Both the position numbers and the translations under genes were made by a program. From a virus, in UHGV virus genome UHGV-1363143: 64,000 nt of DNA; one strand, written 5' to 3'. This document shows positions 10,123 through 26,852 of this stretch, one piece after another (within the stretch, counting starts at the first letter, position 1; every line of letters starts with the position of its first letter). Under the pieces are notes generated by a model, which had not been told where the DNA came from, did not search any database, and was given only the letters and a program-made list of their open reading frames with translations.

Positions 10123-11280
10123 TTAAAGTCGCATATTCATTCTCTTAAGAATATATTCTTTCATGACCATTCTTTCGGCTTCGTAAGGAATTTCTTCAAG
10201 TACCTTTTTGATATCTTTATATTGCTTTAACTTTAATTCATTAATCTGACTATCATATGAATTAACTATCTTTTGCATCTTATACTGTCCATAAGTAAGT
10301 GCATTGGTCTTTATATAATCTTCAATATCACATTTAAGCTCTATTGATAATTCACATAAATCTTTGTTGCCAGGTAGGATTAATATTTTAGAATAGATCC
10401 CCTCAGAAGCCAGTTTGTTAATAGCTTTTTCTGCAGCAGCTATTCCTGGTCCATCTCCATCCATTATGAATACAGGAGTCTTATTCCAATTCTTGATTAC
10501 TTTTACATGTTCATCTGTAAAAGCTGTTCCTAATGTTGCAACTATATTTAATGCATTATACTTATCTGCCATTATTACATCCATTGGTCCTTCAGTTATT
10601 CTTATTTCCTCGAAGCTCTCTATTATATTATGCGAACCATAAAAATAACTAGACTTGTTGAATATCTTACTTGTAGGACTGTTTTTATATTTATCATTTC
10701 TTCCTTCAGGAACTTCAAGCCATCTCTTAGTAAATCCTATTGGATACTTATATCTATTAAGTAATGGGAATACTATCTTTTCTCCTTCAAAACCAATCAT
10801 CCATTTTTTAATATCCTTATCACTTAAACCTCTATTATATAAATAGTTTAATGGTACAGAATATAAATTTTTTATATAACTTTCAGTTTGTATTCTTCTA
10901 AGTTTATATAATTTATCAAATTCTGAACTGGGAATAGGTATCTCATACTTTTCACAAAGATCATAAACTGCTTGTTTCCAATTAACTCCTTCTATCCATT
11001 GATAAAAAGCTATACAATCAGAACCATAATTTTTATGTTCTTTGCTAGATGTATTTTTATCTCCAGAATGACAGACCATACAAGCCCAACTATCAAACTG
11101 ACTGTTTCTATATCCTCTCTTCCAAATTCGGAAAGATGGGTTTTTATCATCATGATTAGGGTGAGGACACTTACCTTGATATATATTGGTGCCTGCTTTA
11201 TGGAGAGCTGTGTATTCTGAAACAAGTTCTACTAAATCTACCTTTTCTTTTATTTCATTAATAAACTCTTGCGGAAACAT
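10123..11280 (-). CDS. DnaG-like DNA primase (zinc finger + TOPRIM)
   Basis: CPHPNHDDKNPSFRIW CHC2-type zinc finger, and a TOPRIM motif EGPMDVIM...IMDGDGPG. Confidence 0.7.
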   Translation of the reverse strand: MFPQEFINEIKEKVDLVELVSEYTALHKAGTNIYQGKCPHPNHDDKNPSFRIWKRGYRNSQFDSWACMVCHSGDKNTSSKEHKNYGSDCIAFYQWIEGVNWKQAVYDLCEKYEIPIPSSEFDKLYKLRRIQTESYIKNLYSVPLNYLYNRGLSDKDIKKWMIGFEGEKIVFPLLNRYKYPIGFTKRWLEVPEGRNDKYKNSPTSKIFNKSSYFYGSHNIIESFEEIRITEGPMDVIMADKYNALNIVATLGTAFTDEHVKVIKNWNKTPVFIMDGDGPGIAAAEKAINKLASEGIYSKILILPGNKDLCELSIELKCDIEDYIKTNALTYGQYKMQKIVNSYDSQINELKLKQYKDIKKVLEEIPYEAERMVMKEYILKRMNMRL

Positions 11281-11315
11281 GTTAGAATTTACTCACCTCT
11301 TTCGATTTTGTGTAT

Positions 11316-11341
11316 GTAAAAAGACTCCCTTTAGGGAGTCC
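11316..11341 (-). terminator. rho-independent terminator
   Basis: Hairpin gactccc-ttta-gggagtc followed by UUUUU on the minus strand. Confidence 0.55.
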
Positions 11342-11346
11342 TTGGC

Positions 11347-12315
11347 TTAGTTTTTAGAACTATCTACTATTCTTACTGATCCATTTGCTTGTACAGTTTT
11401 AGTAGCAATTTCTTGTACCTTAGCATAAGCATCATCTAGTTTAGTTTTTGTTACTTCATGAGCAGCTCTTTCACTTGATAAAGCTTCTTCTAATGAAGCA
11501 ATTTTTTCTTCAAGTCTTTCTTTTGCCCATTTAGCTTCTTTTTCAATATAGCTCTTTTGAATATTGAACTCTTTAGAAGCCTTATCTCTACCTTCTTTGA
11601 ATGAAGATTCTTTAATTTCTTCAATCTTATCATTTAAATTAGCAATATGTTCATTTAATTCTGCATTTTTAGCCTCAATTTCTTCAACCTTAGATTCTCT
11701 TTCAGCTACAGCTAATTCCTTTTCTGCTAATACGGATTCTCTAGAAGCTTTTTCATCTTCCCAAGCATCATTATCCTTTTGTCTTTCTCTCTTTAGGTTA
11801 TATTCAAATTCTTCTTTTTCTCTAGCTCTTTCTTTTTGAAGTTTAACCTTTTCTTCTTGGAATTCAGCTCTTAAATCAGTTTTTAATTTATCATATTCTT
11901 CATTTAATTCCTTAACTGATTTAGCAACTTCTGCTCTCTTTTCAGCTAGATTTGCATTCATTTCCGCTACTTTAGCTTCATAATTAGCATCAAGCTCTCT
12001 ATCCTTATCCTTAGCAGCATTTATTAATGCTTCTAAAGAATCAGCTTCCTTCTTTATGCTATATAATTCTTCTATTTCTTCTTCTAATAAGTCTACAGTC
12101 TTTAATAGAGCAGTATACTTATCCTTCATATCATCATTTAATATTTCTAAATCAATTATTTCTTTTGCTTTAGCCTTTACTTCCTTTATTTCCTTAGCCT
12201 TTACAACTTCTGCAGTAGTAGTTCTTCCTTCTTTTAATCTCTTGATTTCTTCTTGCGCTGCATTGTATGCCTCTAATATTTGATCCTTTGTGTTTTTTGA
12301 TGTTACTTTTGCCAT
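11347..12315 (-). CDS. hypothetical coiled-coil protein (Lys/Glu-rich)
   Basis: 322 aa of highly charged heptad-like sequence. Confidence 0.4.
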   Translation of the reverse strand: MAKVTSKNTKDQILEAYNAAQEEIKRLKEGRTTTAEVVKAKEIKEVKAKAKEIIDLEILNDDMKDKYTALLKTVDLLEEEIEELYSIKKEADSLEALINAAKDKDRELDANYEAKVAEMNANLAEKRAEVAKSVKELNEEYDKLKTDLRAEFQEEKVKLQKERAREKEEFEYNLKRERQKDNDAWEDEKASRESVLAEKELAVAERESKVEEIEAKNAELNEHIANLNDKIEEIKESSFKEGRDKASKEFNIQKSYIEKEAKWAKERLEEKIASLEEALSSERAAHEVTKTKLDDAYAKVQEIATKTVQANGSVRIVDSSKN

Positions 12316-12630
12316 TTAAAATTCCTCCATCTCTCTTGTTAAAAATCATTTTAAATCTACATACTTTATATTATGTGAATAATAAAAAAAAGAGCATTAA
12401 AATGAAAAAGCTTCCACTCTAATATCTCTATTTTGATTCTATATCCCAAATTGTTATATTTTTATAATTTTTAGCATACCAATATCCAAAATCTTCGTAA
12501 TTATCAAAGTATCTGTATTGGTATCCATCTTGGCTAAATCGTTGATTATACTTCACTCTTATCATTAGTTCACCTTTAAATATATTGAATATCATAGAGG
12601 CTATTAAATAGCCCCTACATAATTAAAAAA

Positions 12631-13383
12631 TTACTTAATTTCAAATTTATCTTCCTGAGTTTGAATTGTTACAGAAGGGATAACAGTATCTCCTAAATAG
12701 AATTTACCATCTTCAATTCTTCCATTTTTCTTAAGCATACTCTTATCAAGCTTCTCAACTGTTTCTACTTTTATTAAGTCAGGATTCACTTCTTTAACTA
12801 ATGATTTAAGTTCATCCTCATCTCCATAAATATATTTAGGTTGCTGCTTTTTAAACGATAAGTTTCCATATGGAAGTTTTATAGTCCTAGTTTTTTTGCC
12901 TTCTAATTCTTGCATAGCAAAATCTTTTAATATACTAGAGAAATATGATTTCTTTCTATCTATTTCATCTTGTCTTTGCTTTCTAAATGCATTAACTGCC
13001 TTTGAAGTTCTTTCAATTTCTGAATCACATAACTCATTCATTTCTGTTTCTTCAAGTATTAATTGATTATAAAGCTTAATATAGAAATTAGCTTGAGCCT
13101 TAGTCATTGAACCTGGTTCTTCTATAGAATCCACATTTAAATCAGTCTCTGCAAATTCATTCATAAAATCTCTTAGTTCTCCTAAGAAATCTTTTGCAAA
13201 TGCATTTTGAGGCTCTGTAACAGGAGTCTCTACTTTTTCTTCTTTTGGAAGTAAAGTATCAACCATATCTCCAAAAGGCATAATATTATTAGGCTTTTGT
13301 GAGAACGGGTTATTTTTAATTGCTCCTGGTGGTGGAGCAGGAATTGGCATAGGTGGTACAAGTCTTGCATTTTCCATTAACAT
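12631..13383 (-). CDS. hypothetical protein
   Basis: ORF with a Pro-rich N-terminus. Confidence 0.4.
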   Translation of the reverse strand: MLMENARLVPPMPIPAPPPGAIKNNPFSQKPNNIMPFGDMVDTLLPKEEKVETPVTEPQNAFAKDFLGELRDFMNEFAETDLNVDSIEEPGSMTKAQANFYIKLYNQLILEETEMNELCDSEIERTSKAVNAFRKQRQDEIDRKKSYFSSILKDFAMQELEGKKTRTIKLPYGNLSFKKQQPKYIYGDEDELKSLVKEVNPDLIKVETVEKLDKSMLKKNGRIEDGKFYLGDTVIPSVTIQTQEDKFEIK

Positions 13384-13390
13384 ATCCTCC

Positions 13391-14452
13391 TTAAATAAGA
13401 TTTTTGTTTATATAATCCATTATTGTATTTAACCTTTGATTATAATTACCGCCAACTTCAACAATTTTATCTTCAAATCCTCTTTCGATATACATATGTT
13501 TAAGTCTTTGGTGTAATTTTTCTCTTTTTTCTTGGTCGCCGTTAAGTCTTTGGCCATCTGATACCCACTCAACGTCTGGCTTAAGTAAAAATACTACATC
13601 ATATTTATCAGGATCTACACAAGCTTCTACTTGTGCATTTCTCTCACCCATATATAAAATGCTATAATATTGGGTAATAGTTGCATCTGTATCAAAGAAA
13701 CATAATTTATTAGCACATCTTAAAGCTTCGTAATCTTGCTCAACTTGTTGATGAGCAATTCTAGAAAAGTCTTGAGTAGTAAATATCTCCTCATTTCCTC
13801 CAAGGAATCTTTGAGCATAATATCTACCTACTTCTTCACTCCAAGAGGTGTGATATAATTTAGCCAATGATTTAGTTAAAGTAGTTTTCCCACAACTTTC
13901 ACTTCCAGCTATTAATACTTTCTTAGTAAAGAAAGGTCTTGCAGGTCCTAATATATGATCCCAATGTTTGATAGGATTGCTTCTAATTTCAGTAGCACTA
14001 ATGTTATAAGTAGTTCTCATTGGATCAAATAGATCTACCTTAGCATTAGGGAAATACTCTTCTAGCTTTTCTACATATTCATGCTCTCCACAAAAGAAAA
14101 CATCTATATTGTCTCCTACTGCTCCTTTCATTAGTTCAGCCCACATTGGCCATCCATTAGGATACTCAGGTATATTAGATTCATCTAATTTAACTACTTT
14201 GATGTGAGGCATATCTATAAGCTCTTGAGATAACCATTGTATTCTAAGGTTAACATTAATTTCAGGAATGCCTGATTCTTTACAGATTCTTCTGCTTCTT
14301 TCTATATTGTCACTTACTACTACATAAAGTTTTTGAACCTTTGTGGCAGCATTTAATATAGCTGTTAAATGTCCTCTATGTGGAGGAAGGAATTTACCAA
14401 AGTAAACTCCAACCTTAGGCATATCATTTAAATTGAAAATTGAACCACTCAT
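13391..14452 (-). CDS. nadR: NadR-like bifunctional NMN adenylyltransferase / ribosylnicotinamide kinase (no HTH domain)
   Basis: GKFLPPHRGHL nucleotidyltransferase motif near the N-terminus, and a Walker A AGSESCGKTTL in the C-terminal kinase domain. Confidence 0.75.
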   Translation of the reverse strand: MSGSIFNLNDMPKVGVYFGKFLPPHRGHLTAILNAATKVQKLYVVVSDNIERSRRICKESGIPEINVNLRIQWLSQELIDMPHIKVVKLDESNIPEYPNGWPMWAELMKGAVGDNIDVFFCGEHEYVEKLEEYFPNAKVDLFDPMRTTYNISATEIRSNPIKHWDHILGPARPFFTKKVLIAGSESCGKTTLTKSLAKLYHTSWSEEVGRYYAQRFLGGNEEIFTTQDFSRIAHQQVEQDYEALRCANKLCFFDTDATITQYYSILYMGERNAQVEACVDPDKYDVVFLLKPDVEWVSDGQRLNGDQEKREKLHQRLKHMYIERGFEDKIVEVGGNYNQRLNTIMDYINKNLI

Positions 14453-15133
14453 TTATTTCACCTCTTTTATTTGAGCCTTTTTCCATGAATATAATCCAAA
14501 TATAGAATTGCATAGGTAAACTATCCACATAATTAATGTAGCCATCTCTCCTACACCATTTATTAAAGAGAATGCCCACATGATTATTGATACTACATTG
14601 ATAATAACCCATATCACCCATTGCTCCATAAATTGTTTAACCATTAATATCATTGCAATGATAGATAGAATTGTTGAAGTTGAATCTAAGAATGGTAGAT
14701 AATTACCTAAAGACTTTAAGAAGAATCCATAGAAAATAACTAAGGAAACTGATATTCCGACTAATCTAATTCTTCCTTCTGTGCTAAGACTTTTTGATTC
14801 TATTTCTCCATCATTCTCTTCCTTAGCTTTCTTCCACATATAAAGACCTATAAATTGCATAGGCAAGTAATATAACGCATTTAACATTACTTCTCCATAG
14901 AAGCTAGCTTGGTAAGATAAAATAGCATAAGTAGAAACATTAATAGCACCAAATAAATAATTTAATGACATTCTCTTAGCTACTAGGATTACAGATAAGA
15001 TACCTGTTAATGAAGATACAATCGCTAAGGGACTATCTCCCCAATAAAGGCTTAAACCTAGTGTAGATAATGTCGCAACTGTTACCCATAAAATTTCATA
15101 AAGCTTCCAGTTTTTAAATATTGTTTTGTTCAT
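14453..15133 (-). CDS. pnuC: PnuC nicotinamide riboside transporter
   Basis: 226 aa polytopic membrane protein; the LYEILWVTVATLS...GILSVILVAKR...YWGD pattern is PnuC-like. It abuts the nadR-like gene. Confidence 0.75.
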   Translation of the reverse strand: MNKTIFKNWKLYEILWVTVATLSTLGLSLYWGDSPLAIVSSLTGILSVILVAKRMSLNYLFGAINVSTYAILSYQASFYGEVMLNALYYLPMQFIGLYMWKKAKEENDGEIESKSLSTEGRIRLVGISVSLVIFYGFFLKSLGNYLPFLDSTSTILSIIAMILMVKQFMEQWVIWVIINVVSIIMWAFSLINGVGEMATLIMWIVYLCNSIFGLYSWKKAQIKEVK

Positions 15134-15239
15134 ATACTTTTCTCCTTCGATTTTTGTTTCAAAATTATGTTATGTCTTAAAAAATAAAAAGACTACTTTT
15201 ACGAAAAGCTTCGCAAAAATAGTCATATTTTATTTATAA

Positions 15240-15262
15240 AAATAGAGACTGCTATGCAGTCC
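15240..15262 (-). terminator. putative terminator overlapping the SNF2 gene stop
   Basis: Hairpin gactgc-tat-gcagtc followed by UUUUUAU on the minus strand. Confidence 0.4.
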
Positions 15263-17093
15263 CTTTAGCTAAACTCTTAATTAGCTCTAAATCATAATTT
15301 TCTTTTTTAGCAACAACTTTTAGTTGAATTTCATCCCAACTCTCTTGTGCTATTAGTTGATATACAAATACGTTATCATGAACGCTATCAGCTCTTTCTA
15401 GTCTACCATGTCTCTGTGTCTGAATAGCATAACTACCAGCTATATCATATTCAATTAGATATTTGCATTTAGATAAATTTAAACCTTCAGCTCCAGCATC
15501 AGATAACAATAATACCTTATAATCTGGATTATCTCTAAATTTATCATATACTTCAACACTTCTTTCTTGTGATGATAATGTTCCATTAACATATGCTATT
15601 TTAATGTTTTTATTGTATTTATGGATCCTCTCAGTTATAACGTGTTGCATTCTTTCAAATTTTGAAAATACAGCAACCTTTTCTCCTGATTCAACAATTT
15701 CTTCTATTAAATCCATAAATAAATCCATCTTAGGATTCTTCTTTGTTTTCACTACATACTTTTTAGCAAATTCAGAATCACTATCCTCTAAAAGCTTTGG
15801 TTCGTTTGCAATTTCTTGAGCAAATGTTTGTAGTGCTAATATTTGAGCTCCTATTTTTTGAAGCTCAGGATTTAATTTAGCTTCTAGCTCTGTTCTACAT
15901 TTAGATCTTATTGCGAAATCTTGTTCCTTCAATTCATCTAATTGTTGCATGATTGTATTATTCATATCATACTGTTCTTCTGTAAGTGTAACATACCTTT
16001 GAATGACCTGTAATTTAGGTAATTGATCACTTATTTCTTCTTTTGATTTAATCATAATATATGGTCCAATAGTTTTAGTAAGTTTATTGCCGTTACGCAC
16101 TCCTGCAATCCTGCCTCTCCCTGCCCATTTAATAAATTCAGATGAGAATTTACTCCATGAAGGAAATAAGTCTGGTTTAATAAATTTAAAAATTGAATAA
16201 ACGTTTTCAGGATTTTTTGTAATAGGAGTAGCTGTTGCTCCAACCTTTATTTTTGCTTGGAACTCTTGTAACGCTTTTGATCTTTTACTATCTTTTGAAC
16301 CTATCATGTGAATTTCATCAGCAAAGATAAAATCTAATTTCATTGAATGAAGTTGTTGACGAATAGTATCATCAAGTAAGGCTTCATAATTAACTACAAA
16401 CAAATCATGTCCTTCAAACTGTTCTTTAAACTTAGAGGATATCTTTTCTTCTAATCTTAAATTCTCAAGTTTAATATCACTGATTTTATCTTTGTCTTTT
16501 ATCTTGTCTAGTGTTTTAATTAACTTTTTATTCTTGTTAATTTTAGACTTTGTGTATGCTGAAATACTTGATGGCGATTCAACTGCTACAGCTTTTAAGT
16601 CACTAAACTTGCTAACTTCATTAACCCATTGAGTTTTTAATGAAGCTTTTACAACAATTAAGCCTTTTCCTGAAATCATTCCTCTTTCAGTGGCCTCGAT
16701 AAACATTCCTATTCCTGATGGAGTTTTACCAGCTCCACAAGGCAATACTAGTAAAGCATTATTATTATCAAGTACGAATTTAATAGCCTCTCTCTGATAT
16801 ATATATGGCTTTAATTTCATGGATAAGCCTATTTCATCAAGTGATTTATCGTATCTTCGTATTTTAGGTAAACTGTGTTCTACACTTATGTTTAAATAAC
16901 TATAAGCATTGATAAAAGATTGAAGATCTTCTTCATACAGTTCCCATTGTTTAGTGATAAAATTGAAGTGTACAAATGGATTGTACACAACAATATTTAA
17001 AAATTCACTAAGTTCAGTTTTTTTGCCCAAGAATTTCAACCTATATTTTCTAGAAATAACTCTTTCTATTTTTAATAGTTCCATAGGTTGCAT
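15252..17093 (-). CDS. SNF2/RAD54-family helicase
   Basis: LPCGAGKT Walker A, DEIHMIG (DEAH box), and a helicase C region SDAGAEGLNL...QTQRHGRLER. Confidence 0.8.
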   Translation of the reverse strand: MQPMELLKIERVISRKYRLKFLGKKTELSEFLNIVVYNPFVHFNFITKQWELYEEDLQSFINAYSYLNISVEHSLPKIRRYDKSLDEIGLSMKLKPYIYQREAIKFVLDNNNALLVLPCGAGKTPSGIGMFIEATERGMISGKGLIVVKASLKTQWVNEVSKFSDLKAVAVESPSSISAYTKSKINKNKKLIKTLDKIKDKDKISDIKLENLRLEEKISSKFKEQFEGHDLFVVNYEALLDDTIRQQLHSMKLDFIFADEIHMIGSKDSKRSKALQEFQAKIKVGATATPITKNPENVYSIFKFIKPDLFPSWSKFSSEFIKWAGRGRIAGVRNGNKLTKTIGPYIMIKSKEEISDQLPKLQVIQRYVTLTEEQYDMNNTIMQQLDELKEQDFAIRSKCRTELEAKLNPELQKIGAQILALQTFAQEIANEPKLLEDSDSEFAKKYVVKTKKNPKMDLFMDLIEEIVESGEKVAVFSKFERMQHVITERIHKYNKNIKIAYVNGTLSSQERSVEVYDKFRDNPDYKVLLLSDAGAEGLNLSKCKYLIEYDIAGSYAIQTQRHGRLERADSVHDNVFVYQLIAQESWDEIQLKVVAKKENYDLELIKSLAKGTA

Positions 17094-17101
17094 TCCTCCA
17101 T

Positions 17102-17941
17102 TTAGTCATGAACTCCAATTATATCTAGCATTTCTTTACAGATATTAACTGTTTCTAGCTCAAGATCGTATTTTTCGCAGATATAAATAGCTGATTTTCT
17201 GCTCAACAGGTCTTTAGCCAACGAATCTCTTTCTTCTTTATCTATATAGCATTGTTCATCTAAAGAATCATATAGTAATTTAAATTTCTTACCAAGTCTT
17301 TTGTATACCTTAGGAATATACGATTTTGATACCTCTGCTTCCTCGGCTATTTCCGCTTGGCTTTTCCCTTTTATTTTAAGAAGATAAACTCTTCTTTCTT
17401 TATCTGTGCAGGCATCTATTAGTTCTAATAAAAGGTAAATAAAGTCAAGCAAGAACTCTTGAAATACTACTACATCATCTATATCACAATTATCTCCCAC
17501 TAAATTCAAGAGTTCTATACTTTTCTTATCCGAAGAAGGATTAGGAATTATAGAATCTAGCGAATAATTCATCTCATTTCTTAATATGTTATTTTTTTGA
17601 GCCTCTAAAGAACGTTTAATCATTCCAAGCTTGGACTCACATACTATAAATATCCATGATGACAATCCAGATCTATCTAGATCACATTTATTTACATTTT
17701 TAAATATGTGCGCCCATAGCTCATTATGCATATCTTCTAGATCGTATTGACCTTTACTCAAAGTATTAATGGCTGGATACCACTTTTTAGATATATCCCA
17801 CACTAATCTATCATACTCTTCATAAAATATAGTTGTTTCCGGTTCTTTACCATCAATAACACACTTCAGAAATTCTTTATTGCTATTAATATTTTTTAAA
17901 TTCATAATTCTCCTCCCCATTTTACAGACACTATTCTGCAT
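17102..17941 (-). CDS. sigma-70 family RNA polymerase sigma factor (small, sporulation/ECF-like)
   Basis: A region 2-like segment, and a region 4 HTH LTDKERRVYLLKIKGKSQAEIAEEAEVSKSYIPKVYKRL. Confidence 0.5.
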   Translation of the reverse strand: MQNSVCKMGRRIMNLKNINSNKEFLKCVIDGKEPETTIFYEEYDRLVWDISKKWYPAINTLSKGQYDLEDMHNELWAHIFKNVNKCDLDRSGLSSWIFIVCESKLGMIKRSLEAQKNNILRNEMNYSLDSIIPNPSSDKKSIELLNLVGDNCDIDDVVVFQEFLLDFIYLLLELIDACTDKERRVYLLKIKGKSQAEIAEEAEVSKSYIPKVYKRLGKKFKLLYDSLDEQCYIDKEERDSLAKDLLSRKSAIYICEKYDLELETVNICKEMLDIIGVHD

Positions 17942-19181
17942 ATCTATACATATATTGCTTGTCTATTTCTGTAACAAATCTCGACTCTTGAGTCCTGATA
18001 TAGCTTCCTTGCTTAAGCGTATAAATAGGCCTTGTAATAAAAAGGAGTTTTTTTGCTCGTGTAACGGCAACATACATTAACCTTCGTTCTTCTTCGTAAT
18101 CTGCCTCTGTAGTTGCTCTATATGAAGGTATTACTCCCTCATTTGATCCTGCAATAATAACAATATTCCATTCCAATCCTTTACTGCTATGCATAGTTAA
18201 TAACTGTACGCAGTTCTCTTCATCCTGATTTTGTTCTGCAATAGTGCTATCTAAATTTATATTGTCGGATAATTCTTCCATACTTTCAAAGTGAGTGGCT
18301 AATTCTATTAGCTCTTGAATATTTTCTATTCTATCGTCAGCAATGTTTTTCTTTTCACTCTCTCTGATATAAGGAATATAACCTGTTATTCTTAGCATAG
18401 TCTCTATTGCAATGTCTGGAGTGTTAGTCTCCATTTCTACAGATAGTTCCCCTACTATATCAAGAAAATCTTTAGCACTTGACTTTGCTTTTCCTGTTAA
18501 ATTTATTTGCTCTAATGCTTCAATTAAATTACATGAATTTGTTTTTGCAAAGTCAATTATTTTCTCGACTGTTTTGTCTCCTAGTCCTCTTTTTGGTGTG
18601 TTTATTGCTCTTGAGAAAGCAATTGTATCATTAGGGTTTATTATTAACCTAAAATAAGAAATTATATCTTTAATTTCTTTTCTACTATAAAAGTTGGTTC
18701 CTCCTACAATTTTATAAGGAATTCTATATTTAAGAAGAGCATCTTCTATTTGTCTAGATAGATAGTTCATTCTATATAAAATAGCTATATCACTGTACTT
18801 GTAACCATATTTTTTAACTGATAATTCAATTAATTTAACTATTCTTGCTGATTCTGCCATAGGATCTTTTTCAGGAAAAAATATAATTGGATTACCTTTT
18901 TCATTATTAGATCTTAAGCTTTTTTCTACTAGCTGTTTATTATTACTTATTAAACTTTTAGAAGCGTCAACTATCATTGAAGTACTTCTATAATTAGTAT
19001 TTAATAGATGTACTCTCATGCCAGTAAATATGTTTCTCATATTCATTACAGCTTCTATCTTAGCACCTCTAAAAGCATAAATGCTCTGGTCATTATCAGC
19101 AATCATACAAATATTTTGGTTTTCTCCTGTAAGAAGATATATTAATCTTAAATCCATTACAGAAGAATCATGACTCTCATC
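17931..19181 (-). CDS. UvrD/PcrA-family helicase, 3' exon (motif II onward: DESHD...QSIYAFRGA...VTRA)
   Basis: The frame stays open upstream of the annotated Met through KKDESHDSSVMDL. Motifs III-VI of superfamily 1 helicases are present. Confidence 0.6.
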   Translation of the reverse strand, partial: DESHDSSVMDLRLIYLLTGENQNICMIADNDQSIYAFRGAKIEAVMNMRNIFTGMRVHLLNTNYRSTSMIVDASKSLISNNKQLVEKSLRSNNEKGNPIIFFPEKDPMAESARIVKLIELSVKKYGYKYSDIAILYRMNYLSRQIEDALLKYRIPYKIVGGTNFYSRKEIKDIISYFRLIINPNDTIAFSRAINTPKRGLGDKTVEKIIDFAKTNSCNLIEALEQINLTGKAKSSAKDFLDIVGELSVEMETNTPDIAIETMLRITGYIPYIRESEKKNIADDRIENIQELIELATHFESMEELSDNINLDSTIAEQNQDEENCVQLLTMHSSKGLEWNIVIIAGSNEGVIPSYRATTEADYEEERRLMYVAVTRAKKLLFITRPIYTLKQGSYIRTQESRFVTEIDKQYMYRYAE

Positions 19182-19761
19182 CTTTTTTGTAAATCTAATT
19201 AATAATATAATGTTTCATCTTTTTAGAATAATCTCCTTTCAACACGAACTTACGTTCTTATCATATTTTAGCATATTTCCAATATATACTCAATAATAAA
19301 TACATTTAACAAAAGTATTTATTATTCACAAAAAAAGCGTAACATTAACAATAATATTAGATTTTTCTTACTTTCGCAAGTGTGGACTATATCATCATCT
19401 CATAATTACTAATTTTAGCCCTATTGCTAGTTCTAGTTTTATGAGAATGCCTCTTGTTTCACGCAGAGTTACCTTTCGGCACTTTGCTAGTCTCTGAACC
19501 TTCTTCCACCCTGGCATATAATTATATGTTACATTGGAAGCTTGGCTGCTGATTCCCCATTATTAAGGTCCTTAGCACCATCATATTTAATGATAGCTTT
19601 TATTTCAGCTTAGACTATCCTTAGTTATTTTTTCTGCCTTTCGGCGACATTCACGCTTGTCCTTACGGACTACGTTGTAGTTAACTTAGGCTTTAGGGAT
19701 TGTTCCAGCAATTAAAGAGGTACGCACACTACGTCACCGTAATATGGGCCGATGAGTTCAG
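19182..19761 (-). ncRNA. candidate self-splicing group I intron (ORF-less) interrupting the UvrD-type helicase gene
   Basis: About 580 nt with no ORF and higher GC than its surroundings. It has two cGAAAg tetraloop hairpins on the minus strand. The 5' exon ends in U (gtt) and the insert ends in G. The exon join restores YQYIV|DESHD (motif II). Confidence 0.5.
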
Positions 19762-20407
19762 CAACGATATATTGGTATTGTCTATTGATTTCAGATTTGA
19801 CTTCAGGGAATTGTTCTAACAATCTAACCGTCTTATAAATTAAATCATCAAAATCTACACAGTTATCTTGCATCATTCTGGAATGATAGAGTTGATAGAG
19901 TTCTGCGAATTGTCTTTCTATTGTATTGGTTGATTCTCTCAACGCTTGACTTGGACTTATTAGCTGACATTTATAATCTGATATTTTCCATAATACCTTA
20001 TCAGCTTCAAAATTGTAACCAGATGTTTTAATGATTTCTTTCATTAATTTCTTGCAATCTTCAGTATCGCATATACTAAAAGATTTAGTAAGTCCAATAT
20101 AATTTGCATATTTTCTTAAAAATCTACTGCATACACTATGGTATGTACCGACCATTATACTATTTGCTTCAGGTCCTATAGTAGCAGTTACTCTTTCTTT
20201 GATTTCCATAGCTGCTTTCTTAGTAAATGTAAATAATATAATTTTATCAGCCGGTATTCCGCTTTTAATCATGTTAGCTGTTCGAACTACTAAGGTAAAA
20301 GTCTTACCAGCTCCTGGACCAGCTATAACCATTGAAGGTCCATGAATATCTATTGCGGCTTCCTTTTGTTCATCATTAAGTCTATTAAATAATTCTGATA
20401 GTTCCAT
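19762..20407 (-). CDS. UvrD/PcrA-family helicase, 5' exon (Walker A GPGAGKT to motif II start)
   Basis: AGPGAGKTFTLV Walker A. The ORF then runs into a nonsense tail (AELIGPYYGDVVCVPL) that is intron sequence. Confidence 0.6.
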
Positions 20408-20456
20408 TTTAAGCCTCCAAATAAAAAAGGGGAGTTGTTTAATACTCCCTCAATAC

Positions 20457-20660
20457 TTAATTCAATTTTATAGTAACTGGTGATGAGGGATCTGCTTCAT
20501 AAAATTCTTTTGTTTTTTCTTTTGATACAATTGTTCCACCTAATGCAAGCTCTAAATCTTTAGTTCTTTCTATACATGAAGTACCTGCAAATCCTTCCTT
20601 AGCTTGAAATGTATATCCACCTTTTTCATTTATTCTTATTTCAACTGTTTCTTTTCTCAT
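20457..20660 (-). CDS. hypothetical protein (67 aa)
   Basis: ORF, co-directional. Confidence 0.35.
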   Translation of the reverse strand: MRKETVEIRINEKGGYTFQAKEGFAGTSCIERTKDLELALGGTIVSKEKTKEFYEADPSSPVTIKLN

Positions 20661-20669
20661 GATTGCCTC

Positions 20670-21392
20670 CTAGTTTTCAATATCTTTTAATATTGCCTCA
20701 ACAGTTTCTTTTGCTATTGACGCAAGATTGATATCATAAGAAATAGTATTAAAATAATCATCATCATTTAATACATTTCTATTTGGATATCTTTTTAAAA
20801 CAAGTTTATTCTCTCCAATATTGTTTTCTATTTCTTCTAGTAAAATTATTGGAGCATTATCTAGCTTCACTACTACTCCATTTGGAAAATTATCATCATT
20901 TCTTTTGAAAGTTAATTCTCCTACTATAGTATTAATTACTAATTCTTTTACCTCTGCCATATTTTCAATATAATTTTCAAGATCTGTTTTAAATTTTTGC
21001 AACTGTTTTGTTCTATCTTCTGTATTTAGTTGCAAAAACATTAATAGGCTATCAAAATCATATTTATCAATATAACTCATAGTATTGCTCATAATATTGT
21101 ATGGCAATATTATCATTTTCACATTATCATAACCATCTTCTTTGTTTTTCGATTTAATTGCATCCTCTATATTATTTGTATATAAGAATTTAGATAAATC
21201 ACTATATTTATCATAATATATTAGTGCAGTTGCTTTTGGTAACTCATCTGATTTATTAACTAATTGTTTAACTATAAATTCAATACTATCGTTTAAATAT
21301 ACTGACAGAGTATGAACGTTATTAATTTTTTGTTTAAGTATAGTAACTGTTCCTATATCTGTATATAATTTCATCTCGATTTTATCTATCAT
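20670..21392 (-). CDS. hypothetical protein (240 aa)
   Basis: ORF. Confidence 0.4.
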   Translation of the reverse strand: MIDKIEMKLYTDIGTVTILKQKINNVHTLSVYLNDSIEFIVKQLVNKSDELPKATALIYYDKYSDLSKFLYTNNIEDAIKSKNKEDGYDNVKMIILPYNIMSNTMSYIDKYDFDSLLMFLQLNTEDRTKQLQKFKTDLENYIENMAEVKELVINTIVGELTFKRNDDNFPNGVVVKLDNAPIILLEEIENNIGENKLVLKRYPNRNVLNDDDYFNTISYDINLASIAKETVEAILKDIEN

Positions 21393-21445
21393 GTATTCGC
21401 TCCCCCAATATCTTTAAGGTTATCACTTCAGTCTTTTAAATTATA

Positions 21446-21856
21446 TTATACTACATAACGACTTGCTTGTATAACAATTTCCTTTGTCTTACTATCTATG
21501 GATATATCTTCCTTGTTTATTGTCCATCCTTGTTTTTCACATTGAAAAATTACATCATGCTTTTTATAAGCTTGTGATAATCTATCTATAAAAGTCTTTT
21601 CATCTATTCCTGTACAGAAGAAATCACCAGCTACTTCTAGGTTAGTGTTTTTTCCTTCTTTTATGAATTTTATTCCTATTGATAATGGCTTCCCATCTCT
21701 AACGAATCCAGCGTCAACTTTTTCTGTTATCCAAGTATTTTGAATTAACTTAATATCATGGTCTATAGTTAATCCTAAATCTTTTGCTGCTCTTGATAAT
21801 AATGTTTTTTTACAGTTTACTAATACTTTTGAATTATAAGTTGTTAAATGTGACAT
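21446..21856 (-). CDS. hypothetical protein (136 aa)
   Basis: ORF. Confidence 0.4.
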   Translation of the reverse strand: MSHLTTYNSKVLVNCKKTLLSRAAKDLGLTIDHDIKLIQNTWITEKVDAGFVRDGKPLSIGIKFIKEGKNTNLEVAGDFFCTGIDEKTFIDRLSQAYKKHDVIFQCEKQGWTINKEDISIDSKTKEIVIQASRYVV

Positions 21857-22182
21857 TGAGATCTCTCCTTTTGTTTTAAAAAATATTTATATTTCTTCCC
21901 ATTTAGGGATACATACATATTATTATGACTTGTTTTACTTAAGTGAAGTTTTAAAGCTGGTATATAATGTTTAGCAGCAAATACTTCTCTTAAACCATTT
22001 TTCGAATTATAGAATATTGGCATATATTCTATTTGATTACTTTCTAAATAATCTAAAATTATTACTTTTGTTAATGTGCTATGAGGTTTCCCATTCATAC
22101 TATATAATCCAAATGCTTCAGCTATTTCTTTTGGATATAACATATGCTCTTCAGTTTTTATTTCTAAATAAAACTTATACAT
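21844..22182 (-). CDS. hypothetical protein (112 aa)
   Basis: ORF. Confidence 0.35.
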   Translation of the reverse strand: MYKFYLEIKTEEHMLYPKEIAEAFGLYSMNGKPHSTLTKVIILDYLESNQIEYMPIFYNSKNGLREVFAAKHYIPALKLHLSKTSHNNMYVSLNGKKYKYFLKQKERSQCHI

Positions 22183-22559
22183 TAGAATGGATCATCTTTT
22201 TGATTAGATATATATTTATTGATTAAATCTTTATACATATCTTCTCTCATAGCTAAATAATCTTGTTCAGAAATAAATGGTGGTCTATTTCCTTCAAAAA
22301 TAGGTTTTACTAATGATTCTAATATTTCTTTTACAAGAAAAAATCTTACTTGTTCTCCCATAACATCATTAAATATTTTTTTAAATGCAGCTAAACTCGA
22401 TACCTTTTTCACAAATTCATTTGCAAGATTTTCATATTCTTTGATTTCTTTATATCCATTTGCTTGTACTATTTTTAACTTATTTAATGCTTCTGGATTA
22501 TCAGCATTAGCTACTGGCTCTGTTTTTTTTAAGCTTATGTTAATAACATTTGATGACAT
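22182..22559 (-). CDS. hypothetical protein (125 aa)
   Basis: ORF. Confidence 0.35.
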   Translation of the reverse strand: MSSNVINISLKKTEPVANADNPEALNKLKIVQANGYKEIKEYENLANEFVKKVSSLAAFKKIFNDVMGEQVRFFLVKEILESLVKPIFEGNRPPFISEQDYLAMREDMYKDLINKYISNQKDDPF

Positions 22560-22569
22560 ACATTACCTC

Positions 22570-24228
22570 CTAACCTCTTTTTAAATCATCTATTGAAAGA
22601 ATTCTTGATATTTCTTTATTATTGTTAATATTACAACCATATTCATTGATTAATTGATTACTAAATCTAGCTCTACTTTTTGCATATTCATTTAGTGCTG
22701 CAATTTTTTCTCTAGATGATTTGGCTACAGGAATAACTTCAACACAAGCTTTTTGAATATCTTCTTGTGTAATTTCTTTATTGCCATCTTTTCTGTATCT
22801 AGAAAAAGCTTTCTTTAATGTATTCTTAACAGCTTCTTTGATTTCTGCTCCAGTAAAATCATTTGTTATGTCAGCAGCATAAGTTAATAAAGAATCGTCT
22901 AAACTTTTTCCTAACTTATTAAAATGTATATTAAATATATCTTTTCTTTCATCCTTTTCAGGTAATCCAAAATACCATATAGCATCTAATCTACCAGCTC
23001 TAGTAAGTTCAGGTGGTAATTGTGACACATCATTTGATGTCATAACCACAAATACTCCATGATCTTCTGCTAAGAATTCTAATATAGCTCCTATTGATCT
23101 TGCCATAGTACCTGCATCACTTGAACCACTTGATTGCATACCTGATAAAGTTTTTTCTACTTCGTCAATCAATAATACACATGGAGCTGTAGCCTTTATC
23201 ATTCTAATAGCTTGAGCCATATTTTTTTCTGAACTACCCACTTTTGAATCTAAAATTTTTGACATATCTAATTTTAAAAATGGAAGGCTCATTGATGTAG
23301 CTAAAGCTTCAGCTAATAAAGTTTTTGCAGATCCTGGTACACCTAATGCTAAATATCCTTTTGGTTTTACACACCCAAATTCCATTGCCTCTGGTGTCAT
23401 AGCATCCATTACTTCATCAATCCAAGATTTAAAACCAGCATTTCCTCCAATTTCATCAAGACTTGAATTTGGGATTTTATAATCTAGCACATTTGATTTT
23501 TTTACCAGCTCTATCTTATAATTGCTAATTTCATCTACAGAGATTGTTTTATTTTTAACCAATGATATTCTAAAACTACACGCTATTTCTTCCAATGTCA
23601 ATCCTTTACAGGAATTTATTATCAATTCTTTATCCTCTTCACTGACTGGAATGAAGCCTGGTGTTCGTTGACCTGCCATTAAAGCTGCATTAAGAATGTT
23701 CCTAATTAAATTTTCGTCAGGTGTATTATAATCAACTACTGAGAAGATTTTTTCATGTTCTATTGGTATCTCTGTTACTGGAGAAATTATAATAATTGTA
23801 TTATAGTTTAGGTACTTTCCTTCAACTATATCTCTAAGCATTCTTTTTATATTTGGATTATCTATCATAAGATGAAAGTCTTTTAATATGAAGATATTAT
23901 TTTTATCTTCAATTACAGTTTGTCCATCCTCTTTCATCATTTCAATAGTTTCATCATCCATTTCTATACCTCTAGTAATGTCGTATATAGTTTTTAATAA
24001 TTTATCGACACCAATAGAAGGATCTAGTTTATTTTCTCTATTTGAAGTTAATTCTACCTTCTTTATACCAGTAGCAAATGAATGAACATATATTGGCATA
24101 GGTATTCTTAAAGCTGTAGAAACTTCTTTTATGTCATTAATAACTGCTTCTTCTTCATATGTATTTATCCAAATACATTTTGCCTTAGCGTTTATTAAAT
24201 TTAAAACTTCGTTCATACACTCTCTCAT
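22570..24228 (-). CDS. AAA+ ATPase (classical AAA domain at the C-terminus)
   Basis: LGVPGSAKT Walker A, LLIDEVEK Walker B, and a second region of homology SNDVSQLPPELTRAGRLD. Confidence 0.7.
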   Translation of the reverse strand: MRECMNEVLNLINAKAKCIWINTYEEEAVINDIKEVSTALRIPMPIYVHSFATGIKKVELTSNRENKLDPSIGVDKLLKTIYDITRGIEMDDETIEMMKEDGQTVIEDKNNIFILKDFHLMIDNPNIKRMLRDIVEGKYLNYNTIIIISPVTEIPIEHEKIFSVVDYNTPDENLIRNILNAALMAGQRTPGFIPVSEEDKELIINSCKGLTLEEIACSFRISLVKNKTISVDEISNYKIELVKKSNVLDYKIPNSSLDEIGGNAGFKSWIDEVMDAMTPEAMEFGCVKPKGYLALGVPGSAKTLLAEALATSMSLPFLKLDMSKILDSKVGSSEKNMAQAIRMIKATAPCVLLIDEVEKTLSGMQSSGSSDAGTMARSIGAILEFLAEDHGVFVVMTSNDVSQLPPELTRAGRLDAIWYFGLPEKDERKDIFNIHFNKLGKSLDDSLLTYAADITNDFTGAEIKEAVKNTLKKAFSRYRKDGNKEITQEDIQKACVEVIPVAKSSREKIAALNEYAKSRARFSNQLINEYGCNINNNKEISRILSIDDLKRG

Positions 24229-24255
24229 ATGTTTGTCTCCTTTCCTGTGTGTTAA

Positions 24256-25131
24256 CTAAAAATCAAAATCAGCAAATAAATTATTTACAATATCTTGATC
24301 TGCGTTATTGGTATTAAACATAGATTCTCTACTAGCAAGCAATTCTGCTCTTTCATCAAAATAGAAATCATAATCTAATATATTATTGTTTGTTTCTGCT
24401 ATTATTGGTTCATCACAAGGAACAGAATAGCAATTAGTTACTTTAAGTTTATACTGTCTTATTATTCCTTCTGTATTACTTATGATATCAAAATCATTAA
24501 TTACGAAATTATAATGACCAGTAAAAAATTCTATTTTTGATACATTTATATCTTTTAATGAGATATAAGATACTACATCATTTAAGTTAATTAGAAATTC
24601 ATTATCATCACTTAATGAAGTTTCAAAGCTATTAATAATTGCTACAACTTCATTATTTGTATTTATGATTCTTCCAACAAAATCATATTTTTTATCTGCA
24701 AGAATCTCTCCAGTGAATGCGAAGAAATCTCTCATTAATTCGTCTATTGCCTTTCTTTTAACTTCTAATATTAATTCATGTTCTTCAAAAGAACGATTTT
24801 GGTATATAGTTTCACATAATGCATCTGTAAAATCCTGAATTTCTATCTTTGCTGCAGTAGCTTTATGATCATTAATTATTGCAGATACATTAACATTAAT
24901 AGGATCTATATCTTTATTGAATTCACATACAAACGATATTTCTGTTTTACCATTTTTGCATGTAGCTTTATTAATAGTATCTACTTTTATAGGAACTATA
25001 ACTGCTTTAGACACTTCTTCTAGTAGCAAATAATCATATGTTCCATCATCTTCACATACAAAACTAGCATAAACACCTTCTTTACCAGTCAAATCTACTT
25101 GTTGTATACTATTTCTTTCATATAAAGCCAT
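24256..25131 (-). CDS. hypothetical protein (291 aa)
   Basis: ORF immediately downstream of the radical-SAM activase-like gene. Confidence 0.4.
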   Translation of the reverse strand: MALYERNSIQQVDLTGKEGVYASFVCEDDGTYDYLLLEEVSKAVIVPIKVDTINKATCKNGKTEISFVCEFNKDIDPINVNVSAIINDHKATAAKIEIQDFTDALCETIYQNRSFEEHELILEVKRKAIDELMRDFFAFTGEILADKKYDFVGRIINTNNEVVAIINSFETSLSDDNEFLINLNDVVSYISLKDINVSKIEFFTGHYNFVINDFDIISNTEGIIRQYKLKVTNCYSVPCDEPIIAETNNNILDYDFYFDERAELLASRESMFNTNNADQDIVNNLFADFDF

Positions 25132-25141
25132 ACTGTACCTC

Positions 25142-25822
25142 CTATCCTATAAAATAAGTCTTACATTCTAAATCTTTTAAGATATATTGCAAGTCATTGC
25201 TATTAGTTAAGAACATGCTATCTATATCTCTCATGGCAAATCCATACTTCTTTTTTGTATTCCATATAATTTGATTTCCTGAGCCTACTGAACTTAATAA
25301 TCCATCTTCTTTTTCTCCATCCCATAGTCTTTCATCTTGCTTATACTCCCCATCAACTATAATATCTACGATTTTAGCTAATCTTCCTAGCTTATCTCTG
25401 AATATACTTTCTGGAGTTAAAGCTGAATTAACTATAAGACCTTTACCTATATACTTCTTTAGTTCTAAATGAGTATAAATCATAATGTGAAATCCATATT
25501 TTTTAAGTTCTTCACACAAAATTAGTAGATTATCTATTTGATCAGTTGGTTCACCTCCACCAATAGTTATATATTTATTAGGAGCAAATTCATTTATATG
25601 TTTAGCCATATCTATTGGATTGTGACTAATTTCTGCTTTTGAAACATCCCATGTACTGCTGTTAAAACAACCTTTACATGGATTACCTAGCATAGCCTTT
25701 TTACATCCTAATAAAAATATCTCTGTTCTATTATTATCATCTGGACTAGGGCCTGCAGTTTTTACACTCCATCTTACATCCCTCAATAATAATCCATTTA
25801 AATCATTGTTAGCCTTGTACAT
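25142..25822 (-). CDS. NrdG/PflA-family radical SAM activase-like protein (second paralog, divergent cluster motif)
   Basis: GCKKAMLGNPCKGCFNSSTWD aligns with the NrdG GCSMGCPGCHNTHTW but carries a 4-residue insertion, and IGGGEPT matches SGGDP. Confidence 0.5.
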   Translation of the reverse strand: MYKANNDLNGLLLRDVRWSVKTAGPSPDDNNRTEIFLLGCKKAMLGNPCKGCFNSSTWDVSKAEISHNPIDMAKHINEFAPNKYITIGGGEPTDQIDNLLILCEELKKYGFHIMIYTHLELKKYIGKGLIVNSALTPESIFRDKLGRLAKIVDIIVDGEYKQDERLWDGEKEDGLLSSVGSGNQIIWNTKKKYGFAMRDIDSMFLTNSNDLQYILKDLECKTYFIG

Positions 25823-25835
25823 AGTTTGTTCCTCC

Positions 25836-26045
25836 TTATATTATTGAATATTTCACTATTTGATTTGTTACATCCGTTTCACATGCTGAACAAACATAGA
25901 TAGTTTTTTTATTACCCTTAGTTAATTTAATTCCTGATGGTGTATTAGTTCTTCTTAAAGTAAACACATCATTCTCTTTGAATACTACACCTTTACATTT
26001 AGGGCATTGTATATATTCATTTTCATTAAGCATATTGATTGCCAT
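25836..26045 (-). CDS. hypothetical zinc-ribbon protein (69 aa)
   Basis: CPKC...CSAC. Confidence 0.35.
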   Translation of the reverse strand: MAINMLNENEYIQCPKCKGVVFKENDVFTLRRTNTPSGIKLTKGNKKTIYVCSACETDVTNQIVKYSII

Positions 26046-26096
26046 TGAAACTACCTCTTTTCTCTAAATCTTGATAGCAAAAATAGGGAGGAGCTA

Positions 26097-26852
26097 TTAA
26101 GCTCCTTGTGCTTGCTCTTGAGCAGAAACTAACCCTTTTAAGTAATTTACAAACTCTGAAATGTTTTCAGGCATTAAATAGTTTGTTGTTGGTAAAGCAC
26201 CATTTGAGAAAGTATTTATATAATTATCCATATCTGCTTCAACTAATCCATATTTCTTTTTGAACTCATCTAAATAAGCAAAATCTTCTTTATGTTCATC
26301 TAATGCTTCTTCAGTCCATGGATCTTCATAATTCATTAAATTAAAGAAATAAGCTTCATTTTCATCTCTGTATAATTCTAAGCCTATACCAAACATAGTA
26401 GCAGCTTTTTTAAGAGCATCAGTATTGGCACCTTTAAAGATATTTTCTTGCTCAGATTGTCCTCCAACTAAACATTGTGCTCCAGGAGCTGTTTTTGAAA
26501 TTTGATAAAAGCGTCCAGAATCATCTTGTAGATGAACTGTTAATCTACCTATTACATGAGCAACTGGTTGTTGTGGTTCATATTCAGGTGAATCAAGATT
26601 TACTTTCTTTCCATTTACGTACTTTACTTTTATCATCTTAGGCTCACTTTGTTGGATAAATCTTTCGATTATATCCCATGACCATCCTGTATACCCAAAA
26701 GTAGCGTTTAATTTATCAATAACTGCTTGTCCACTTACATATGTTAAGCTAGTTTTTCCCGCAGGCTTTTGTTTGTGGATATACTCTGGTAATGGAGTTG
26801 CAAGAGCTACTTTTAATTCTTTAGGTGTGTTTATTACTTGTAATTCTGACAT
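26097..26852 (-). CDS. Rad52/Sak-type single-strand annealing protein
   Basis: The LTYVSGQAVIDKLNATFGYTGWSWDI...HVIGRLTV...TDALKKAATMFGIGLELY pattern matches the Rad52 N-terminal domain. Confidence 0.55.
   Translation of the reverse strand: MSELQVINTPKELKVALATPLPEYIHKQKPAGKTSLTYVSGQAVIDKLNATFGYTGWSWDIIERFIQQSEPKMIKVKYVNGKKVNLDSPEYEPQQPVAHVIGRLTVHLQDDSGRFYQISKTAPGAQCLVGGQSEQENIFKGANTDALKKAATMFGIGLELYRDENEAYFFNLMNYEDPWTEEALDEHKEDFAYLDEFKKKYGLVEADMDNYINTFSNGALPTTNYLMPENISEFVNYLKGLVSAQEQAQGA

Follow-up and report, generated by a model that had tools for sequence, protein, structure and literature searches.

Two open reading frames in the helicase region

We analysed a 64,000-nt stretch of UHGV virus genome UHGV-1363143 (the window, meaning that whole stretch), with attention to a helicase gene on its minus strand and to the insert that interrupts it. 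The gene appears as two open reading frames (ORFs), at 19712..20407 (ORF1, 231 aa) and at 17931..19157 (408 aa), with no sizeable ORF between them. An earlier note on this DNA had read these ORFs as the N- and C-terminal halves of one superfamily 1 (SF1) helicase, split by a group I intron. Pfam comparison agrees with the first part of that reading: positions 1–217 of the UvrD-helicase profile match ORF1 residues 10–215 (E 1e-51), and positions 219–269, together with UvrD_C, match the frame that starts DESHD at 19181 (E 1e-70). Since exactly one profile position is left between the two matches, the ORFs represent two halves of one SF1 helicase, and in the spliced protein the missing position 218 is filled by Ala216. 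Two further features described in the earlier note are also real. ORF1 ends in a nonsense tail of 15 non-helicase residues (ELIGPYYGDVVCVPL*) before its stop codon (UAA, 19714..19712), and the frame of the second half is open upstream of its Met, back to 19214.

Exon 1 (19760..20407, minus strand) comprises 216 codons, from Walker A to ...YQYIVA with GCU as the last codon, as defined by Pfam, translation and intronless homologs. Exon 2 (17931..19181, minus strand), defined by Pfam and translation, comprises 416 codons plus the stop; it starts with GAU GAG (DESHDSS...) and holds everything from motif II onward, including motif III (QSIYAFRGA) and UvrD_C. The break thus separates A from DE within the beta-strand/DExx motif of Walker B. 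Joining of the exons restores motif II in frame, as had been claimed, and the spliced product of 632 aa aligns end to end with an intact 632-aa homolog (P0001; 70% identity, 100% coverage). We consider it very probable that the UvrD/PcrA-type SF1 helicase gene of this uncultivated giant phage consists of exon 1, an intron and exon 2.

Splice sites and guide pairing

A search with the spliced protein returned four intronless homologs (P0001, at 70% identity, P0003, P0006 and P0007) in which ...YQYIVADESHDSS... is unbroken across the junction. Since these proteins read YQYIVADESHD, the exon-1 residue before the junction is Ala216 (GCU, 19762..19760, the last codon of exon 1), and exon 2 begins with GAU at 19181. 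The junction after Val215 that had been proposed earlier is therefore displaced by one residue. Because the intron and exon 2 both start with GA, three placements at the nucleotide level yield an identical mRNA, but only one of the three (19759..19182) both places a U ahead of the 5′ splice site and makes G the last base of the intron. With this placement, the group I intron (19182..19759, minus strand) is 578 nt long, starts with GAACUC and ends with ...AAAAAAG; its assignment draws on Rfam, nine related loci and covariation. U19760 is the 5′ splice-site uridine and the last base of exon 1, and G19182 (omega-G) is the terminal intron base, in agreement with the earlier statement that the 5′ exon ends in U and the insert in G. 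Of the insert as delimited in the earlier note (19182..19761), the 3′ edge stands, but the 5′ edge made it 2 nt too long.

The P1 hairpin with the guide occupies 19748..19762 (minus strand), where exon GCU and intron GA (19762..19758) pair with UCGGC (19752..19748), including the U19760•G19750 wobble. P1 is 100% paired in all ten sequences compared (the window and its relatives, described below), and the pair beside the U•G switches between G-C and A-U, a compensatory change. For P10, the guide sequence CUCAUC (19756..19751) is complementary to exon-2 GAUGAG (19181..19176). As a whole, the window guide 3′-CGGCUACUC-5′ forms an unbroken stretch of 9 bp with the ligated exons 5′-GCU|GAUGAG-3′. 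Continuous pairing of the guide with both exons is the classical P1/P10 alignment.

These features are kept among the relatives. In 10/10 introns, the 5′ exon ends in GCU and its U forms the U•G pair with the guide; the terminal G is likewise present in all ten, although the tail preceding it is unconserved. Pairing of the guide with the ligated exons extends over 7–9 bp in nine of the ten introns, and in L013, P10 is down to 4 bp. Exon-2 GAG is synonymously replaced by GAA in L012, L016 and L013, with a matching change of the guide from CUC to UUC in L012 and L016. The ten intron-bearing alleles all have GCU as the Ala codon, whereas the intronless L005 has GCA; this difference fits a possible splicing constraint on the third position of the codon, the comparison being with one intronless DNA sequence only.

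The ribozyme core

A focused Rfam scan of 751 nt (19100..19850) matched RF00028 (Intron_gpI) at 19769..19365 on the minus strand, with a score of 53.7 bits (gathering score, 50) and an E-value of 9e-13 over model positions 1–253 of 253. The earlier note had staked its reading on a group I covariance match on this strand and on P1 and P7 pairing; the match exceeds the gathering score and both helices are present (P1, GCU|GA : UCGGC; P7, G(A)GACUA : UAGUCC). In the Rfam alignment, P1, P2, P3, P4–P5 (with a ∼170-nt insertion in L5), P6, P8 and a GAAA-capped P9 can be seen, along with the conserved P7 elements GGUUCAGAGACUA and AUGAUGAUAUAGUCC and an additional hairpin that separates P7 from the 3′ strand of P3.

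Following the minus strand from P1, P2 (19725..19746) is a 9-bp stem with a GUGA (GNRA) loop that is paired in 10/10 sequences, with two compensatory pairs and a loop that stays GNRA. In P3, the 5′ strand CCUCUU (19720..19715) pairs with the 3′ strand AAGAGG (19455..19450) in the alignment. The UAA of J3/4 (19714..19712) is the in-frame stop of ORF1 on unspliced RNA. P4–P5 and the P5 extension (19547..19711) include P4 (19710..19705 : 19552..19547) and contain many compensatory pairs (helices 4–11); the extension itself is a branched structure of ∼140 nt, with GUAA- and GAAA-capped hairpins and an A-rich segment. In the P6 stem-loop (19503..19540), where CUUCCA (19540..19535) pairs with UGGAAG (19508..19503), 6/6 pairs are compensatory. 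The 5′ strand of P7, G(A)GACUA (19488..19494), pairs with UAGUCC (19389..19384) in a pseudoknot with P3 and is the predicted guanosine-binding helix; P7 is invariant in the 10 sequences, is 98% paired and matches the Rfam consensus AGACUA...UAGUCu. The extra hairpin in the position of P7.1/P7.2 (19463..19487) is GAAA-capped with internal loops, and eight of its nine pairs are compensatory. It forms one composite hairpin, the mark of subgroup IA2 being a P7.1/P7.2 pair; the large P5 extension is present too. P8 (19396..19449) has ∼48–56 extra loop nucleotides compared with the ∼90%-identical relative L001/L021 (alignment gap, 19447..19400), and the P9 hairpin CUUGC-GAAA-GUAAG (19367..19380) is found in the Rfam alignment and in single-sequence folds.

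The earlier description of the insert thus stands in outline and changes in detail. GAAA tetraloop hairpins are present, but there are three (19645..19636, 19480..19471 and P9, 19380..19367) rather than two, in addition to the GUGA loop of P2 and the GUAA loop of the P5 extension. Compared with flanks of 0.26–0.33, the GC content is 0.35–0.45 over the 5′ ∼395-nt core (∼19760–19400) and 0.20–0.24 over the 3′ ∼185 nt (∼19360–19190), so that the insert is GC-richer than its flanks, as had been stated, in its 5′ part, whereas the 3′ part is AT-richer. In the relevant sense, the insert is indeed ORF-less: only mechanical ORFs of at most 45 aa occur, and none is conserved in relatives. One of these, a 40-aa ORF (19395..19517) that lies inside P6–P8 and partly in the window-specific P8 insertion, was treated as non-coding. 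Homing endonuclease ORFs (LAGLIDADG, GIY-YIG, HNH or His-Cys box) were found neither in the intron nor as a conserved feature of the ten homologs, among which the longest called ORF is 50 aa (in L011). Searching with the intron alignment (nhmmer) gave no second intron copy in the window.

Homologous introns and covariation

The spliced-protein search also returned many C-terminal-half proteins of ∼408–444 aa with 63–100% identity (P0002–P0025 and P0066). Nine loci were fetched (L001, L008–L013, L016 and L017), representing eight independent lineages on contigs of up to 245 kb, and every one of them (9/9) contains a homologous intron of 443–524 nt at the identical codon boundary. The 5′ ∼370 nt of these introns align well and conservation fades shortly past the 3′ strand of P7; P9 aligns poorly beyond the closest relatives and the remaining 3′ part is essentially unalignable. 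The ORF1 tail (ELIGPYYG, KLIGPYYR, ...) is conserved because it overlies the P1–P2 RNA and not as protein.

RNAalifold, applied to the ten cores (alignment A1), recovered P1–P6, the branched P5 extension, the post-P7 hairpin and P8, with compensatory changes in 39 of 81 pairs. For pair counting, one spurious hairpin was dropped from this fold and P7 was added as a pseudoknot, giving 83 pairs and 825 cells. Standard pairs occupy 97.2% of the 825 cells compared with a shuffle mean of 85.5%, and both sides have changed in 40 of the 83 pairs compared with a shuffle mean of 23.2; none of 500 shuffles reached the observed pairing or compensatory count. When the 3′ partners were slid by 1–3 columns, pairing was 35–41%. 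The Rfam E-value of 9e-13 and these covariation controls exclude chance as the source of the fold.

The closest public relative is a 241-kb contig with ∼90% nucleotide identity whose intron is ∼48 nt shorter in the P8 loop. The helicase protein of this relative (L001/L021) is 97% identical to that of the window. Scans of IMG/VR with two intron-specific patterns returned one contig each, namely this relative, and a scan of JGI metagenomes with the intron pattern returned nothing beyond the contig of the same relative. In the intronless P0001, the gene order is that of the window (AAA ATPase, small ORFs, DUF1257, DUF2997, helicase, 269-aa gene, SNF2 helicase); given this shared synteny, P0001 represents an orthologous intronless allele.

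A group I intron, a split gene or a pseudogene

Taken together, the Rfam match, the splice-site rules, the intronless allele and the covariation uphold the group I intron reading of the earlier note, and we conclude with high confidence that the insert is a bona fide ORF-less group I intron in motif II (Walker B) of a phage UvrD/PcrA-like SF1 helicase. Splicing itself, its catalysis and its efficiency in vivo we infer from the sequence.

Several observations weigh against this conclusion. The intron was absent from the output of whole-window Rfam scans, whether run at the gathering threshold or with E up to 0.01, and the score in the focused scan is only 3.7 bits over threshold. Since the shorter input gave the match, we attribute the whole-window misses to an effect of the speed filters on long input rather than to absence. 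P7, being invariant, supplies no covariation evidence; L009 and L013 have a G/G mismatch in P3 unless a bulged register is assumed; and P1 contains only three exon base pairs. A degenerate pattern for the ligated junction (YQYIVADESHD) had no match in JGI contigs, neither as spliced cDNA nor as an intronless allele. Finally, the long unconserved 3′ tail could lower splicing efficiency.

Could the helicase instead be naturally split into two independently translated genes, with the insert an inactive relic or an unrelated structured spacer? In all relatives (P0002–P0025), gene callers indeed annotate the halves as separate proteins, and a promoter-like motif lies inside the insert, upstream of exon 2. 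Such a split would, however, part A from DE in the Walker B beta-strand/DExx motif, and exon 2 has neither a conserved start codon nor a conserved ribosome-binding site. The called starts vary among relatives (MDLRL..., MDESHD... from the terminal AUG of the intron, MKKDESHD... and a 36-aa extension), and no Shine-Dalgarno sequence is suitably spaced from the ATG at 19157. Moreover, an inactive relic would not keep 40 compensatory pairs, the U•G pair, the terminal G and a guide that changes in step with a synonymous substitution in the exon. We therefore regard two separate genes as quite improbable. Still less credible is a helicase pseudogene disrupted by a decaying mobile element, to which one might point because the reading frame is interrupted and no endonuclease gene is left in the insert. 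Both halves keep all helicase motifs at 63–100% identity in many lineages with conserved synteny, neither exon has frameshifts or stop codons among the ten loci examined, and the same arrangement recurs in contigs from many independent samples. The insert, for its part, varies in length only in peripheral loops while its core is conserved.

Other types of insertion were considered and rejected. The ends GAACUC...AAAAAG differ from the GUGYG...AY of group II introns, for which no Rfam match was found at E up to 10, and there is no reverse transcriptase ORF. An intein is incompatible with stops in all frames. For an IStron-like chimera (a group I intron plus an insertion sequence), a transposase ORF is missing and the tail is only ∼185 nt. 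A programmed frameshift or a translational bypass is rejected because of the length of the insert, which at 578 nt is far beyond the range of either, and because of its nature as a conserved ribozyme.

With a group I intron, expression of the gene can be pictured as follows. In a transcript consisting of exon 1, intron and exon 2, the 5′ ∼395 nt of the intron would fold into a P1–P9 ribozyme core, and exogenous guanosine bound in P7 would attack the phosphodiester after U19760, which is marked by the U•G pair in P1. The guide 3′-CGGCUACUC-5′ would hold exon 1 GCU beside exon 2 GAUGAG through P1 and P10, and the AT-rich 3′ domain would be looped out by an end-to-end helix such that the terminal G19182 reaches the G-site. 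Ligation of GCU|GAU, with a predicted junction reading ...CAATATATCGTTGCT|GATGAGAGTCATGATTC..., would then give the 632-aa helicase (...YQYIVADESHD...). Unspliced RNA would yield only a 231-aa fragment, translation stopping at the UAA of J3/4.

There are practical consequences for annotation. All public assemblies that we examined list the helicase of this jumbo-phage clade as two separate proteins (231 aa and ∼408 aa), and these split calls should be merged into one 632-aa protein. The filtering of long input by Rfam may also hide other divergent introns, and split genes in AT-rich phage genomes merit a focused scan.

The 3′ tail and its promoter-like motif

Downstream of P9, the intron continues as an AT-rich, poorly conserved peripheral domain (19183..19366, minus strand), delimited by composition and by the minimum free energy (MFE) fold. 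In this fold, the tail is closed by a long-range helix (19364..19356 : 19199..19191; z = −3.0 versus shuffles) that ends 9 nt before the terminal G. An end-to-end closure is predicted in all ten introns from differing sequences, with duplex z-scores of −0.7 to −5.0, and the 3′ strand of the closing helix ends 0–9 nt before the splice site. The recurrence of this predicted closure suggests that the tail is a looped-out peripheral domain that would return the remote 3′ splice site to the core.

The tail also carries a putative sigma-70-like promoter motif (19265..19293, minus strand), with TTGAGT as −35 element (19293..19288), a 17-nt spacer, TAAAAT as −10 element (19270..19265) and the TG of an extended −10. 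In the window, the pattern TTGAnn-N16-18-TAAAAT has two matches versus 4.1 expected, so that the window alone is not significant. With a strict definition (TTG plus at least 4/6 in the −35 element, a spacer of 16–18 and at least 5/6 in the −10 element), the motif occurs on the sense strand of 7/10 tails versus 1.1 expected from mononucleotide shuffles. With the close relative dropped and dinucleotide shuffles used, 6/9 lineages have the sense motif versus 0.98 expected (maximum of 5 in 2000 shuffles), compared with 1/9 lineages on the antisense strand. Strict matches have a density of 6.2 per kb in the tails versus 0.42 per kb over all loci, and apart from the tail motif, the minus strand of the 64-kb window has no strict match with TG. 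These counts have to be read with the knowledge that the criterion was fixed after the sequences had been seen, that the tails share ancestry and that AT-rich DNA is prone to such matches. For these reasons, we keep a functional promoter as a minority hypothesis, and the motif probably does not act as one.

Further along the minus strand of the tail (19195..19239), sequence and alignment reveal a Shine-Dalgarno-like AAAGGAG (19239..19233) and an ATG (19218..19216) that opens a 7-codon ORF, MKHYIIN*. This mini-ORF is shared only with the close relative L001, where it has 3 codons. In both sequences, the order is promoter-like motif, small GNRA hairpin, AAAGGAG, ATG and 7 (or 3) codons, a series that resembles the stump of an expression cassette; the mini-ORF may be a vestige of a lost intron ORF.

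Two accounts of the tail can be set against each other. According to one, the tail is the decayed remnant of a lost homing-endonuclease cassette, and the motif has no function today, being either a relic or a consequence of AT-richness. This account, to which we give about an even chance, draws on the cassette-like series in the window and L001 with its truncated ORF, and on the fact that the motif is not over-represented window-wide (2 versus 4.1 expected). The ORFs of T4 introns, moreover, are expressed from their own promoters, and that of sunY lies 3′ of the core. None of the ten introns retains an endonuclease ORF, however, and TTGnnn-N16-18-TAnAAT is found on the sense strand in six of nine lineages of otherwise unalignable tails, where 0.98 would be expected. 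The other account holds that the tail is kept as the carrier of a working sigma-70-type promoter, the selfish intron having been co-opted as a regulatory module, which we consider rather unlikely. Such a promoter would start transcripts inside the intron, 15–75 nt 5′ of the 3′ splice site across relatives, and would give the downstream genes a second transcription entry, independent of splicing or of readthrough of the terminator-like hairpin ahead of the helicase. Co-option, if true, could explain the persistence of the intron without an endonuclease, and an intron-loop promoter, if real, would be a case of an intron co-opted for gene regulation and more surprising than the intron itself.

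Downstream of the tail lie exon 2, then a gene of 279 aa (17102..17941) that overlaps the stop codon of the helicase, and the SNF2 helicase gene. The 279-aa product has a weak, sub-threshold similarity to sigma-70 region 4 (Pfam, 19.8 bits versus a cutoff of 25.7), which we regard as tentative only. Upstream of the helicase, the minus strand has a terminator-like hairpin with a T-run (20449..20430). It falls in the spacer that separates the DUF2997 gene from the helicase start codon and leaves too little space for a promoter before that codon. A hairpin is found in this spacer in most relatives, too, though often without a T-run.

Gain and loss of elements in the helicase region

In a neighbour-joining tree of C-terminal halves, constructed without bootstrap, the intron-bearing sequences form one clade. 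The intronless P0001 and P0003 are nested between P0066, which is split, and the remaining intron-bearing sequences; the intact P0006 and P0007 and the intein-bearing P0008 fall outside. Taken at face value, the nesting of P0001 and P0003 indicates either that the P0001 lineage lost the intron precisely or that the intron was transferred laterally. An intron that lacks an endonuclease may spread by vertical descent, by recombination with co-infecting relatives or with the help of a free-standing endonuclease.

Four homologs (P0008, P0033, P0045 and P0115; 951–1003 aa) contain an intein (Pfam PF14890) in motif III, DNDQ|C...HN|SIY, at a site that follows the intron site by ∼35 residues. The adjacent conserved motif of the same gene is thus the target of another type of self-splicing element. 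The relatives, which range from intronless to carrying an intein in the next motif, offer a natural series for the study of targeting, gain and loss of self-splicing elements.

LAGLIDADG ORFs lie in or beside the downstream SNF2 gene in L010 (5083..7224), L011 (5116..6345) and L017 (5090..7227), ∼2.5–4 kb from the helicase. In L010, the ORF splits a short N-terminal ORF from the rest of SNF2, and in L017, it follows a truncated 511-aa SNF2 ORF. These arrangements suggest a second intron or an endonuclease insertion in the three relatives, and not in the window, where SNF2 is intact (15252..17093).

Other features of the window

Elsewhere in the window, a full-length GOLLD RNA (51412..51857, minus strand; 171.8 bits) and a skipping-rope RNA (50407..50489, minus strand; 58.2 bits) are embedded in an array of 14–15 tRNA genes (50075..53885), all on the minus strand; one of the tRNA calls (51319..51389) has the odd anticodon ATA. 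Approximately 10 copies of a ∼33-nt unit (roughly AGAWGYGCATTTTTTWGGTRCTATAT) are arranged in two blocks at 60488..60860 (plus strand), between the ORFs 59175..60500 and 60919..61935, and may represent iterons, an origin or an array of sites that resemble an extended −10. The regions 767..8218 and 33910..43520 (minus strand) encode a GroEL-like chaperonin, the anaerobic ribonucleotide reductase NrdD, GyrA, GyrB, and ClpX-like and AAA ATPases, and nearly all genes lie on one strand for ∼55 kb. This set of genes suggests a jumbo phage whose host is anaerobic and low in GC.

Comparison with known introns

DNA matches to isolated phages are limited to intron positions 19730..19534, from P3 through the P5 extension, with 71–78% identity. 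They fall in introns or unannotated gaps of Staphylococcus Twort-/K-like, Listeria, Brochothrix, Enterococcus, Lactococcus and Klebsiella phages. In Brochothrix A9, the matches lie between ribonucleotide reductase gene fragments and score 39 bits on RF00028; in Listeria LPJP1, the match follows an rpoB-like fragment; and in Staphylococcus phage Metroid, it is located after the tail-tube gene and before an HNH gene. Since Rfam gave no match for the LPJP1 and Metroid loci at E up to 0.001, we treat these loci as candidate introns only, and the HNH gene of Metroid did not serve as a model of the tail. Megablast of 10000..30000 against isolated phages found no match, and the window phage therefore has no close cultured relative. 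The nearest helicases of isolated phages, which are 37% identical and uninterrupted, are those of the Bacillus jumbo phages 0305phi8-36, Edson and WH1.

A review (PMC3984707) covers phage introns that lack ORFs and the possibility that free-standing endonucleases mobilise them. Like the collaborative-homing introns discussed there, the intron of the window is ORF-less, lies in a conserved motif of a phage gene and is patchily distributed among relatives; unlike them, it has no free-standing endonuclease gene beside the helicase in the window. From inteins, which are translated in frame and splice at the protein level, it differs in containing stop codons and in acting at the RNA level. In staphylococcal myoviruses, group I introns are found in helicase, ribonucleotide reductase, endolysin and polymerase genes, and the Twort helicase has an intein (PMC5526547). 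Our intron resembles those of Firmicutes phages (Herelleviridae and relatives) in its ribozyme family, in its DNA-metabolism host gene and in being, like many of them, ORF-less. It is set apart by its position in motif II of a UvrD/PcrA-like helicase, by its occurrence in an uncultivated jumbo phage of ∼240 kb and by its long AT-rich 3′ domain, and it provides a well-supported instance of a group I intron within the Walker B motif of an SF1 helicase.

In its layout, the intron also recalls that of T4 sunY (nrdD). The sunY intron, of subgroup IA2, has a compact 5′ core and a long looped-out 3′ region that contains an endonuclease gene (I-TevIII). In both cases, a phage gene of nucleic-acid metabolism is interrupted and a remote 3′ splice site is, or in the window would be, returned by pairings at the 3′ end; comparing layout only, the 3′ region in the window differs in being ∼185 nt long and ORF-less. 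Group I introns are well known in phage DNA-metabolism genes, and the helicase intron is a solidly supported new example of this long-known type of element.

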